The notes: generated from the sequence alone by a model not told the origin. A stretch of DNA of 64,000 bases from Candidatus Enterousia sp. (GCA_045606425.1 JAZURV010000011.1:3496-67495), one strand, 5' to 3'; numbered from the stretch's first letter, positions 33,514 through 38,390 are shown. Made by a program: numbers and translations.

Positions 33514-34959
33514 GTGTCAACACCCGCAAAGCCGCAGTTTTCTACACACACACACACACACACACACACACACACACACACACGGGTAGTTTTTGCCTGC
33601 CTTTTTTCTTTGTTTAGTTTTATGGGTTTTGCGCGTGAAATACCAACAATTAATATCACAAAAAATACAAACCCAAAAATAGCTGAATTATATCAGCAAT
33701 TACAAGATGTTCAAAACAAGGTTAGCCAGATTCAATCGGAACGCTTGGATAAGCTATCTGAAAACTATCAAGCGGTAAAAGAAAATGAACAAAGTTTGGA
33801 AAACAGAACTTTGACAGCGGCGACCACTGCGGCGACGGGAATGGGCGGTATGCAACTGGCGATGGGATTGGCGGAAAAATCTGCTGACAAAGCGGCAGAA
33901 GAAGACATGGCGGCATATATCGCGACTTTCCGTTGCAACTATGGCGATGGTAAACAATTCAAAGCCGGGCCTGATGAAATCGAATTGCCCGGTGGGAATG
34001 ATGCTGAATTGATGAAGTTACGTGCTGAATATTTGGCATTGGCTGCTGATTTGAGAGAAAGAAAAACTGCGCTTGGTATGTCCCCGGGTATCGAAAGTGA
34101 AGAAATATTGGATAAAGAAACCAGTGGATTATATGACGATGAAAGTTTGGGTATAGAATCTGGGAATTATGCATCACTTTATCGAGCACAAGCATTAAAC
34201 AGCGAAGCAGACCGGACAAAGATAGATGACCAACAAAACGCGTCTGCAAACCGGGTAAAAGGTGGTGCAATCGCTGCTGGTGCTGGTGTGGTCGGTGGTA
34301 TTGTGGGTAACGCCATTATCAACAAAGACGCACCAAAGAATGAAAGCGATAAAATTCAACGTGAATATGATAATAAATTGAAAGAAGTAACCAAAGAACA
34401 GGAAGATTTAGAAAAACAACTTAATGAAGCAATTGCTCAAAATGCGACAGAAGTTAAAGAATTTAACACAAAATTACAACAACACAAAGATCAAATATCT
34501 GCAATCAATCAGGCGCCTACAGTTTGTCAGGAACTTTTTGCGGATTATATATCTACGGTTTCAAATTTATCTCCTGTTGAAAATGAAACAGATTCTGTAC
34601 CGGATGTGGGATTGCCAGATGTTTCAGAACAAAAAACTTTGTTAACACAATGTTCACAATGTAATACCAAGGGGGCTGTGTTTGATTCTGAAACAAAGCG
34701 GTGTTCTTGCCCACAGGAAAGACCTGTTGAAAAAGATGGTCAATGCGTTGAAGACAGTATTAAACCAACACCTGAACCAGTCATAGAAAAAGAACCTGTT
34801 GCAAAACCAGAAGAAGAGACCCCTGCAGAGACAGAAAAAGAACCCGAAACAAAACCTGGTGTTGATACAACACAAGAAGATGTTGATGCCATAATTAACG
34901 CATTAAAAAACAGAATACAAGAATTACAACCATGTCAAACAGGCAAAGAAGAAGCATAA
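33514..34959 (+). CDS. secreted coiled-coil/Gly-rich protein with an (AC)20-encoded (Thr-His)10 tract ahead of the signal-peptide core
   Basis: The ORF is open from the GTG at 33514 through the repeat. A hydrophobic core (VVFACLFSLFSFMGFA) follows the repeat. The ATG at 33512 is out of frame in this sequence. Confidence 0.6.
   Translation: MSTPAKPQFSTHTHTHTHTHTHTRVVFACLFSLFSFMGFAREIPTINITKNTNPKIAELYQQLQDVQNKVSQIQSERLDKLSENYQAVKENEQSLENRTLTAATTAATGMGGMQLAMGLAEKSADKAAEEDMAAYIATFRCNYGDGKQFKAGPDEIELPGGNDAELMKLRAEYLALAADLRERKTALGMSPGIESEEILDKETSGLYDDESLGIESGNYASLYRAQALNSEADRTKIDDQQNASANRVKGGAIAAGAGVVGGIVGNAIINKDAPKNESDKIQREYDNKLKEVTKEQEDLEKQLNEAIAQNATEVKEFNTKLQQHKDQISAINQAPTVCQELFADYISTVSNLSPVENETDSVPDVGLPDVSEQKTLLTQCSQCNTKGAVFDSETKRCSCPQERPVEKDGQCVEDSIKPTPEPVIEKEPVAKPEEETPAETEKEPETKPGVDTTQEDVDAIINALKNRIQELQPCQTGKEEA
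33544..33583 (+). repeat. dinucleotide microsatellite (AC)20 in the 5' coding region
   Basis: Forty uninterrupted nt of alternating A and C, counted directly. Confidence 0.95.
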
Positions 34960-37900: not shown

Positions 37901-38390
37901 TGCAGCGAATTCTGCAAATTCAGCCACAAAAATAGAAAAAATCAGAATCGCCAAAGAAGCTGATAATTTGGGATATCATGGCACAGATGCTGATATAGCC
38001 GTGACGGATAAGATAAGACCTTCGGGAAACACCAGTGGCAAGTTAGGTAGGGTCGGATATGGTATAGCAAAAAACTATGATGATGCAGAAAGATATGCTA
38101 TAAGAAGGTTGATAGAAAGACAAAATCCTGGAAAATACATAGAGTTTGATTTTAGTGATGGGGTTTTCAAAATACGGGCTGGCGAACCATTAAATTTATC
38201 AAATAAAACAGGATATGTTTATACAACAGCGAAAGGAAGTGATGTTCAGTGGGATACATTGTTTTTCAGTCATAGCCGAAACATAGCTTCCCCGGCTGCA
38301 GGAATGCCGAACGCAGTTGAAATTTTAGATAAAGTCACATTCAATTTGGATGATTTGATTCGTTCTGGTAAAGTTAAAATTATTTATTAG
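34959..38390 (+). CDS. 1143-aa secreted multidomain protein: Cys-rich repeats, Gly-zipper/TM-like segments, low-complexity linker, C-terminal toxin-like (H-Y-E ART-like) domain
   Basis: ATG at 34959 overlaps the upstream stop (TAATG). Signal peptide MSIKHRFLLLILLCWPFVSVAV. See findings for the domain arguments. Confidence 0.7.
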   Translation: MSIKHRFLLLILLCWPFVSVAVNTSAIQNASTVAEAVSAAKEELSKLNLTEEQRAAGNQELENATQITDCDSSETAEEDFEGGYCPATGNGLKSINDKTMVGDLCSSTNIQVGEVILRKDGKTCTCVASACNSGYYFKGGACYTEGKAVTNLCPRSIHKETKENNTTQKCVAFCGKVADKAGCKYSSVVMRHSTKECICNPNVSEIDAARESMQRAVACPMIAYPETKENNTFDKCSKFCEAKAKENSCKYKQALSQHSSNQCVCNPDESQLKSSNLYKQICAKDRGKRGKNEHCVEDYFDKIQTQIGQAIGFAQEYARIKDGNKIVCSNNHRTYHNDDYIACATNGGSVYYEFKFDDIRESVDSSRRKTEQVALCKLGGGRIIRPSYAGAVSYCDGLNQKQCTSLDELAKRYGHELKWSGDKCGFTDYGQEIKSSKEFEDSLAKIDGLDNYAFYKLQVVSIRKNFVLEDDLKKYVQGKISVATFSCDPGYKTVTKADNLLQKITGDSDDIKRCYVNKKPFDFVFNDLSEIMKYERDAGESGSKCIANNGKFDGHYCRGLIKSECFELEKLLLKELKTKGWNGDEDLVDWDESAGACELNAAQFANNVNKTGKYAAIAGLTVGGVVSGGSTTAVAVGLMATELAGMAGEIYVERKKELLPQQWANEFLVASRSCKSSGCAEITLRSNFGKIAQSSDMLNRDVLKQVDDELARLGELLSEDRLADIMNNPQAPNCWETWKCQERIFVVMQMASLGAAVGKALVKFTKVIAKKAGAAATKKTTALVKTPSKADNVTSVTKGGAKPGPTGGGAGDAAKGADTTSDGVKATNAADDSAHSGSQTKDTDSGAHTSGTNEGSSQRSQNANEGSNRGAGTSGSADAARTANKSDDLSALRQSASRNFDTYLAEAKNNVSGKSDHIIPKARLNDSDWKAINESLAREDVQLVEVTRDGKTYMQFVRKTTKTSGKNADDVADAAHGSAKNAANSANSATKIEKIRIAKEADNLGYHGTDADIAVTDKIRPSGNTSGKLGRVGYGIAKNYDDAERYAIRRLIERQNPGKYIEFDFSDGVFKIRAGEPLNLSNKTGYVYTTAKGSDVQWDTLFFSHSRNIASPAAGMPNAVEILDKVTFNLDDLIRSGKVKIIY
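35415..35780 (+). repeat. tandem 198-nt (66-aa) Cys-rich domain duplication inside the CDS
   Basis: CPRSIHKETKENNTTQKCVAFCGKVADKAGCKYSSVVMRHSTKECICNP versus CPMIAYPETKENNTFDKCSKFCEAKAKENSCKYKQALSQHSSNQCVCNP. Confidence 0.8.

Follow-up and report, generated by a model that had tools for sequence, protein, structure and literature searches.

A two-gene locus of Candidatus Enterousia combining a dinucleotide-repeat cassette, a putative helper protein and a modular exported protein

In Neisseria, the reading frame of opa genes is switched by CTCTT repeats, CT dinucleotide repeats are found in Hop outer-membrane protein genes of Helicobacter pylori other than oipA, and the lic1 locus of Haemophilus influenzae is reported to have three expression states. 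In oipA itself, CT dinucleotide repeats within the signal-peptide coding region switch the frame (PMC10564699), and the pil1 locus of Streptococcus gallolyticus undergoes phase variation by means of a leader peptide with GCAGA repeats and a transcription terminator (Danne et al., 2014; PMC3894217). A comparable repeat is found in a two-gene locus at positions 33514-38390 of a 64,000-nucleotide stretch of DNA from Candidatus Enterousia sp. (GCA_045606425.1, JAZURV010000011.1:3496-67495; this whole stretch is referred to below as the window). Gene 1 of the locus encodes a putative helper protein of 481 amino acids (aa) and gene 2 a modular exported protein of 1143 aa. As in oipA and opa, a perfect non-triplet repeat lies in a signal-peptide coding region, and the number of repeats varies between loci such that both ON and OFF frames occur. 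Unlike in those genes, the repeat is (AC)n and the organism an alphaproteobacterium that has not been cultured; the genes behind the repeat encode unrelated protein families, and the repeat is part of a reusable cassette of promoter, ribosome-binding site (RBS) and leader that occurs at five places in one metagenome-assembled genome (MAG). As its start codons occupy two frames, the locus may have three expression states, similar to those of lic1. In contrast to pil1, the repeat in the window is fused directly to the gene 1 open reading frame (ORF), and the repeat unit and the lineage differ.

Gene 2 resembles the polymorphic toxins (CdiA/CdiB, Rhs, MafB) in being a large exported protein with a conserved N-terminal scaffold and exchanged C-terminal modules, and at least one relative carries a Zeta toxin domain. 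It differs from them in having no known trafficking domain, linked secretion system, Omp85 partner or following immunity gene, and its scaffold is disulfide-rich and structurally orphan. The pair also differs from two-partner secretion (TPS; TpsB/TpsA), as gene 1 is predicted to be helical with no Omp85/POTRA barrel and gene 2 has no TPS domain. In Pfam, gene 1 had no ShlB or POTRA match and gene 2 no TPS or haemagglutinin match. SlyB and the Rickettsia 17-kDa antigen are lipoproteins whose hydrophobic segments are rich in small residues (G/A/S/T) with zipper-like spacing, suggesting insertion into a membrane leaflet and oligomerisation. The helper proteins described here are analogous to them in being exported and in possessing such segments, but they are larger, contain coiled coils and conserved cysteines, are coupled or fused to cargo, and have neither a lipobox nor a Gly-zipper match in Pfam. 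The simple sequence repeat (SSR) switch is of a known type, and gene 2 follows a polymorphic-toxin design. Its scaffold and the helpers are orphan families.

The locus is read here as a phase-variable, helper-dependent system of surface or secreted polymorphic effectors belonging to the cell envelope or surface, a reading to which we lean tentatively and with slightly more doubt than confidence. The elements on which it draws are directly supported: the gene structure, the coupling, the family memberships, the mosaicism of the gene 2 tails, the interchangeability of helpers, and the polymorphism of repeat length and frame between loci.

Locus layout and the dinucleotide-repeat cassette

The locus and its 5′ region comprise the following elements:

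33427-33458: bidirectional intrinsic terminator hairpin ACCGGCAAATGCCGGT with flanking A/T runs (terminator scan)
33479-33487, + strand: extended -10 promoter-like element TGATATAAT, read from the sequence and belonging to the conserved 5′ cassette
33496-33516, + strand: RBS AAAGGAAAGG, then the start codons ATG 33512 and GTG 33514, which overlap and lie in different frames
33514-34959, + strand: gene 1 ORF, helper protein, 481 aa, GTG start
33544-33583, + strand: perfect (AC)20 tract (Tandem Repeats Finder, 100% matches), the sole such tract in the 64-kb window
34957-34961, + strand: TAATG overlap, with one base common to the TAA stop of gene 1 and the ATG of gene 2
34959-38390, + strand: gene 2 ORF, modular exported protein, 1143 aa from ATG 34959 (database call, P0001)

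The upstream hairpin terminates a HAD-hydrolase gene, and the gap between the gene 2 stop codon and a convergent RmuC gene is 80 nt, so that gene 1 and gene 2 form an isolated two-gene unit, read here as a single transcription unit. The TAATG overlap bears out the coupled locus proposed by the first-pass annotation and, as judged from its sequence, is a site of predicted translational coupling between the two genes. An alternative ATG for gene 2 lies upstream at 34932 (ORF 34932-38390) and would add nine residues, giving 1152 aa. The extended -10 element was not listed by a simple sigma-70 scan because its -35 match is poor; AAATATGRTAYAAT is kept in all six aligned copies of the cassette. RNA structure in the 5′ region of the window copy was no more stable than in shuffled sequences (z = +1.8), and an Rfam scan returned tRNAs only.

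The (AC)20 tract begins 30-32 nt 3′ of GTG 33514 and ATG 33512 and lies directly 5′ of the hydrophobic core of the gene 1 signal peptide, VVFACLFSLFSFMGFA. It encodes (Thr-His)n within the n-region of that signal peptide. As the repeat unit is 2 nt long, each AC unit gained or lost shifts the frame, and since (AC)n encodes Thr-His in all frames the tract itself never brings in a stop codon. At n = 20, GTG 33514 is in frame with the 481-aa ORF and ATG 33512 leads to a 25-aa peptide. The ATG would be in frame with the gene 1 ORF at n = 19 or 22, and at n = 21 no start would be in frame. With ATG and GTG starts filling two of the three frames, there are probably strong-ON, weak-ON and OFF states.

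A pattern search with the 3′ flank of the repeat (chance expectation 0.00) located further copies of the element, five of them at separate places within a single MAG (n = 11, 15, 15, 16 and 18) and another in a second MAG (n = 9). The cassette consists of an extended -10 element (TGnTAYAAT), an RBS, a start codon, the conserved stretch ...AAACCCGCAG....CT, the (AC)n tract and GGTAGTTTTTGCC; its tract lengths range from n = 9 to n = 20 at eight sequenced places (six distinct loci outside the window). The gene 1 orthologue of another Ca. Enterousia MAG (L008; 62% protein identity) has the same arrangement with n = 10, a length at which none of the upstream starts is in frame; loss of one unit would activate an ATG and gain of one unit a GTG. 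A start codon and the main ORF share a frame in the window copy and in L012; in L008 and L013 the frames do not agree. The tract's purity, its length polymorphism and the mixture of ON and OFF frames, all comparative evidence between loci and genomes, lend good support to the label "phase-variable" that had been given to gene 1 at first pass. By its repeat, its position and the ON/OFF frames seen between loci, gene 1 is a well-supported candidate for an SSR-type translational contingency locus.

The cassette is also found in other arrangements. In L015, L017 (~7600-7700) and L018 (6600-6790) of MAG CAMZIQ01, all on the minus strand and given in plus coordinates, it produces a short leader ORF, MNRLKPAVFY(TH)n.... 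Two strong hairpins come after this ORF, and hairpin 2, with its GC-rich stem and U-run, is a terminator. A new RBS and ATG for a secreted protein follow the hairpins, and in one case this protein is a member of the Zip family described below, with an overlapping partner. The three frames of the leader end before, at the start of, or beyond hairpin 1. The L015 copy sits at a contig end. As in pil1, a repeat-containing leader ORF, here with frame-dependent stops at differing distances from the hairpins, precedes a secreted-protein gene, and by this analogy the three loci look like cases of SSR-set leader-peptide attenuation. In L012/L016 (MAG CAMOXB01), an (AC)9 cassette is followed by a run of small secreted proteins of 111 (GTG start), 124 and 202 aa. 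The 111- and 124-aa proteins each have one Gly-zipper-like helix and the 202-aa protein is Cys-rich, an arrangement that suggests broad use of the switch for envelope proteins.

Gene 2: a conserved Cys-rich core and exchanged tails

A search of 5.8 billion proteins yielded at least 48 relatives of gene 2, all unnamed and 965-1839 aa in length, whose common core corresponds to P0001 aa ~76-765. Along gene 2, the features are as follows:

34959-35198, + strand: signal peptide (aa 1-21) and head (aa 22-80)
35202-36776, + strand: Cys-rich multi-domain core (aa 82-606) with ~30 conserved Cys; predicted local distance difference test score (pLDDT) mostly 80-94
35415-35612 and 35613-35810, + strand: tandem 66-aa six-Cys units
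36792-37295, + strand: membrane-interacting-looking region, the last conserved part of the family core
37296-37610, + strand: disordered G/A/S/T/N/D-rich linker (aa 779-884, pLDDT <50), the start of a mosaic Cys-free tail
37611-37838, + strand: small alpha/beta module (aa 885-960, pLDDT ~93)
37926-38387, + strand: C-terminal domain (aa 990-1143), in which the motifs GYHGTDA...GxGIA...AExYAxxR...NKTxYxY are conserved in the alignment

The signal peptide, MSIKHRFLLLILLCWPFVSVA, is of the Sec type. The duplication of the 66-aa six-Cys domain was recovered with a local alignment score of 150, against 28 ± 5 for shuffled sequences (shuffle maximum 62), and its span runs to 35810, slightly further than had been annotated. 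The region at 36792-37295 combines two hydrophobic segments, the first of them Gly-zipper-like (aa 612-650) and the second at aa 744-765, with a bundle of helices between them (aa 651-730) and a helix rich in Lys. A Kyte-Doolittle scan (P0001 numbering) was used to locate the hydrophobic segments, and together with the translation and the AlphaFold2 model it agrees with the signal peptide, two small-residue hydrophobic segments and linker previously described for this protein. A CxxxxC pair within the helical region (C674/C679) is invariant in the family, and a second pair (C734/C740) is conserved. After the signal peptide gene 2 has 37 Cys, all of them in its first 740 aa, and its last 403 aa contain none. 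The Sec signal peptide and this Cys distribution argue against a cytoplasmic protein and point to an extracytoplasmic, probably disulfide-bonded N-terminal part and a tail that would not need oxidation.

AlphaFold2 modelled gene 2 at a pLDDT of 67, as small alpha/beta modules; confidence was high over aa 82-606, 660-730 and 885-960 and over most of 1030-1143. The prediction delivered confident domains and a disordered linker but no structural counterpart, as Foldseek returned no matches at E ≤ 1e-3 in the PDB or in BFVD, the latter holding viral structures. Pfam and NCBIfam gave only noise and no family for either gene, and gene 2 had no RHS, PAAR, LXG, VENN or other known trafficking or pre-toxin domain in these two databases.

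Beyond the core, the tails of the gene 2 family fall into 15 clusters. P0015, which occupies the syntenic site of another genome, has a core only 34% identical to that of the window protein and a C-terminal domain 65-72% identical, whereas P0002 pairs a core of 61% identity with another type of tail. The tail modules are 65-72% identical between cores that are themselves only 34% identical, which indicates exchange rather than drift. The module at aa 885-960 recurs in other tails of the family, sometimes in tandem. The homologue in L008 has a tail matching Zeta_toxin (85.5 bits; cut-off 22.3), five homologues have tail matches to the WaaP/Kdo kinase family, and three have sub-threshold J-domains with HPD motifs, all in Pfam; HExxH motifs were seen by eye in two tails. 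Overall, Pfam matches in the tails are few and mostly under the gathering thresholds. The C-terminal domain type of the window protein has 29 representatives among 1.84 billion proteins, nearly all of them in the gene 2 family. Its profile gave two chance matches among PDB sequences, and five diverse members had no match in Pfam at E ≤ 10.

Two candidate relationships for the tails were set aside. An apparent likeness of GYHGT...GxGIAxD...AxxYA to the H-Y-E signature of ADP-ribosyltransferases and poly(ADP-ribose) polymerases (PARP) has no search support; the position of the catalytic acid is not conserved, and no such activity is claimed. Precomputed VRP3/SpvC matches on two homologues were not reproduced at E ≤ 1e-3. 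Separately, a short acidic, Ala-containing DDVADAA-like motif is confined to the tails, with 24 occurrences there and none in the cores, typically just before a module; in the window it lies at 37863-37883 (P0001 aa 969-975). Its role might be to delimit modules or to serve as a site of processing, or it may mark a junction left by recombination.

One explanation would dispense with delivery altogether: gene 2 would be a periplasmic protein anchored in the inner membrane by two transmembrane segments, gene 1 and the Zip proteins would be structural, and the tails would reflect relaxed constraint. The two hydrophobic segments in each of gene 2 and gene 1 could indeed be transmembrane helices, no secretion machinery is linked to the locus, and the window copy offers no fold or family assignment for an enzymatic cargo. 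Against this, the identity values of tails and cores denote exchange, a resident protein bearing a Zeta toxin would poison its own cell, the conserved pairs C674/C679 and C734/C740 between the hydrophobic segments are hard to reconcile with a cytoplasmic loop, and SSR phase variation is typical of exposed molecules. We consider resident envelope proteins very unlikely.

The exchanged tails could also be those of a strictly antibacterial polymorphic toxin. Gene 2 would then be bacteriocin-like, contact-dependent or diffusible, with gene 1 as its release or export factor, the Cys-rich core as receptor-binding region, the hydrophobic helices acting in translocation and the C-terminal domain in killing. 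The family's conserved scaffold and variable C-terminus fit such a protein, the order of receptor-binding, hydrophobic, linker and C-terminal parts resembles colicin- or CdiA-type logic by analogy, and one homologue ends in a bona fide Zeta_toxin that is followed by a 76-aa ORF. In that case (L008, 7266-11087), the Zeta_toxin homologue is followed by the 76-aa ORF, of overlapping range, and by a gene for an HD-domain protein; this small ORF is a possible antitoxin or immunity gene and had no informative Pfam match. Downstream of the homologues generally, immunity candidates likewise gave no informative Pfam matches. Such a toxin is nonetheless at odds with the lack of an immunity gene after gene 2 in the window or after the syntenic relative with the same C-terminal domain, with a C-terminal domain that matches no known toxin family, with J-domain and kinase-like tails in relatives, which are more typical of effectors, and with the absence of a type V, VI or VII secretion system or a lysis gene nearby. 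We regard this explanation as unlikely.

Gene 1, the Zip family and the interchange of helpers

The layout of gene 1 was derived from its ORF translation, alignment, hydropathy and an AlphaFold2 model (pLDDT 72):

aa 24-43: signal-peptide h-region
aa 54-91: coiled coil
aa ~85-270 (33766-34323, + strand): conserved gene-1-type domain, flanked by two Gly/Ala-rich hydrophobic helices
aa 276-332: long helix
aa 380-411: Cys knot or cluster
aa 415-450: P/E-rich disordered stretch
aa 452-471: C-terminal helix

The coiled-coil and Gly-rich segments (TAATTAATGMGGMQLAMGL and GGAIAAGAGVVGGIVGNAII), the Cys-rich stretch and the P/E-rich tail noted at first pass are therefore all present in the translation. 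The signal peptide is of the Sec type and ends in ...FSFMGFA/REI, with no Cys and hence no lipobox; no Gly-zipper or Rick_17kDa match was found in Pfam at E ≤ 0.1. The model is helical overall, with its coiled coils and Cys knot predicted confidently, and Foldseek returned only coiled-coil noise for it. The gene-1-type domain occurs in at least 643 proteins at 55-74% identity, in N-terminal, internal or C-terminal position, and is fused elsewhere to trypsin, CarboxypepD_reg(-like) and Flg_new (Listeria-Bacteroides repeat) modules. Only four proteins (P0049-P0052) are full-length relatives of gene 1 that include the long helix, Cys knot, P/E stretch and C-terminal helix. Wherever their context could be read, they precede a gene 2 homologue (L008, 1193 aa, with the Zeta tail; L009, 1828 aa; L010, 1165 aa).

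Two further helper-like genes of the window precede trypsin-like proteases, and they belong to a family named Zip in this analysis:

2775-3680, + strand: Zip helper of cassette 1
3677-4546, + strand: trypsin-like protease of cassette 1, from ATG 3677 (ORF from 3659), Trypsin E 4e-8
22878-23828, + strand: Zip helper of cassette 2
23825-24763, + strand: trypsin-like protease of cassette 2, Trypsin_2 E 1e-7

In both pairs the genes are joined by an ATGA-type overlap of start and stop codons. At least 2152 unannotated proteins make up the Zip family; all of them stand alone and are ~300-345 aa long, and the family profile (~310 aa) contains four G/A/T-rich helices and four conserved Cys. The first-pass annotation had counted three occurrences of a helper followed by an enzyme-bearing partner in the window. 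The two protease cassettes hold as described, whereas the toxin-like, enzyme-bearing domain ascribed to gene 2 matches no family or fold.

Helpers of both types are coupled to gene 2 homologues. At six other distinct loci, it is a Zip protein (~311-342 aa) rather than a gene 1 relative that overlaps the start of the gene 2 homologue, and a 4-nt overlap between helper and homologue is found in L001, L002, L004, L006, L007, L008 and L011. A gene-1-type helper precedes the homologue in L008 and L009/L010. L011 (ENA ERZ27291689 k119_218456, 1-15870) is syntenic with ~27000-44000 of the window and has the gene order RND pump, 214-aa ORF, HAD hydrolase, Zip and P0015, RmuC, def, fmt, truA and comEC. 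This synteny means that the same chromosomal site hosts either helper type, and the comparison of the two sequences indicates a probable cassette replacement at a fixed chromosomal site.

In each of the 9-10 loci examined, the head of gene 2 and the type of helper vary together without exception. The head type of the window protein is common only to homologues behind gene-1-type helpers (identity to P0001 is 55% over aa 1-81 in L009/L010 and 44% over aa 6-213 in L008). Homologues coupled to Zip (L001-L007 and L011; six distinct) align to P0001 only from aa 71-84 onwards; their head is of another type, conserved among themselves. The trypsin domain of the Zip-coupled protease in the window is itself homologous to trypsins fused to the gene-1-type domain (E down to 3e-12). 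Since either Zip or gene 1 is coupled to gene 2 homologues, and trypsins are likewise coupled to the one or fused to the other, either helper type can take the other's place with the same classes of cargo, which is good genomic evidence for an equivalent function that the two would share.

Relatedness between the two helper types is another matter. The two Zip proteins of the window are full-length homologues of each other, but for gene 1 profile comparison by hhalign gave a probability of 72% (E 3e-5) that covers only the signal peptide and the first Gly-rich helix. BLAST between gene 1 and Zip found nothing (E > 0.1), cross-searches with hidden Markov models (HMMs) were non-significant, and the Zip HMM missed gene 1 at E ≤ 10. 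When the heads of Zip-coupled proteases and Zip-coupled gene 2 homologues were compared, only the signal peptides aligned. The common export or delivery logic proposed earlier for the three upstream proteins is thus largely sustained by the interchange of helpers over the same cargo, on firmer evidence than was available at first pass, although homology of gene 1 to Zip is not demonstrable.

Proposed action of the locus and its setting

In the preferred reading of a phase-variable, helper-dependent effector system, gene 1 and gene 2 would both be exported by Sec. The glycine-zipper helices of gene 1 may insert into a membrane or oligomerise at it, and through contact with the gene 2 head the helper could anchor, pilot or release its cargo. 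Gene 2 would be that cargo: its ~525-aa disulfide-rich core is plausibly a binding or adhesin scaffold, its hydrophobic helical region could engage a membrane, and the Cys-free tail behind the linker would be an effector or toxin module exchanged by recombination, presumably displayed at the surface and delivered from there. Expression would be stochastic, with slipped-strand mispairing altering the (AC)n frame, and the level of gene 2 would follow that of gene 1 through the TAATG overlap.

Several observations weigh against this reading. No known secretion-system gene adjoins the locus, whose neighbours are the HAD hydrolase and RmuC genes; the VirB9 and VirB10 genes of the window (53976-57845) are ~15 kb away. 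The hydrophobic segments of gene 2 could be ordinary inner-membrane anchors. The conserved domain of gene 1 was modelled with modest confidence only (pLDDT 50-76). For the C-terminal domain of gene 2 (aa 990-1143), neither a catalytic fold nor a relative was recognised in Pfam, PDB sequences or the Foldseek libraries, and in some relatives the domain is internal rather than terminal. The next gene after gene 2 in the window, and after its homologue in the syntenic L011, is convergent RmuC, with no immunity-like ORF between. As to phase variation, the ON call for the window is provisional, because the exact n in a short-read metagenome assembly may be unreliable. The matching public runs consist of Logan assembler contigs that end at the repeat, in which switching within a population is not observable, and no public run contains more than 7% of the words of gene 2, the strain being absent from these runs.

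The named relatives of gene 1 and gene 2 come from Candidatus Enterousia, "Rickettsiales" and Alphaproteobacteria MAGs, and fragments are present in bovine, sheep and other gut metagenomes. Candidatus Enterousia belongs to the order Rs-D84, widespread gut bacteria with genomes below 1 Mb in which most biosynthetic pathways are missing and that are believed to rely on other cells, with which their mode of contact is not known (PMC12306168). Gene 2 could accordingly be a phase-variable adhesin or effector directed at a eukaryotic or other partner cell, with the tail acting on or in that cell, possibly after export resembling that of pertussis toxin (Sec, disulfide folding in the periplasm and a chromosomal VirB type IV system). 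The partner-dependent lifestyle (PMC12306168), the VirB9 and VirB10 genes in the window, a VirD4-like coupling protein 2.3 kb from the L007 homologue, and the J-domain, kinase-like and weak precomputed SpvC/VRP3 matches in the tails are consistent with this, as is the fact that phase variation is typical of host-exposed surface molecules such as H. pylori OipA (PMC10564699). It is countered by the lack of physical linkage between the locus and the vir genes of the window, by tail matches in Pfam that are few and mostly sub-threshold, and by the absence of anything marking a type IV secretion signal. This host- or partner-directed explanation seems improbable as it stands.

A wider proposal, which we put forward as doubtful, is that Zip and the gene-1-type domain are interchangeable anchoring or export modules of an undescribed route, specific to the Rs-D84 lineage, for surface display or secretion of proteases and giant polymorphic Cys-rich effectors. 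Many of the operons concerned would be wired to the portable (AC)n cassette, by frameshifting in a signal peptide or by leader-peptide attenuation, and together they would constitute the main, stochastically varied interface of these obligate symbionts with partner cells.

The locus provides testable candidates for the contact of Rs-D84 and Enterousia with partner cells. These are two helper families, both very large and unannotated, whose genes are tied to those of secreted cargo; a new scaffold, lacking structural relatives, on which effector or toxin modules can be swapped; and a portable dinucleotide-repeat switch with many loci per genome. If the proposed action is correct, it would extend the combined logic of contingency loci and polymorphic effectors to an uncultured commensal lineage, and it might reveal a new mode of protein anchoring or export in diderm bacteria.

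Apart from the locus and the two protease cassettes, the window also encodes gyrA, leuS, yidC, comEC, an RND pump with TolC, and VirB9/VirB10. Inside the VirB10/TrbI-like gene (minus strand, 53976-56366) lies a hexanucleotide GGTTCT array of ~11.7 copies (55819-55888); being in frame, it would vary the length of the protein and not switch the gene off. At 15838-19325, the window encodes a 633-aa secreted protein with Listeria-Bacteroides (Flg_new) repeats, within which 249 bp are duplicated in tandem (17073-17591). The ORF that comes next, of 476 aa, has charged AEEAKRR repeats together with a single hydrophobic segment. In other genomes, Flg_new modules are fused to the gene-1-type domain (P0159).

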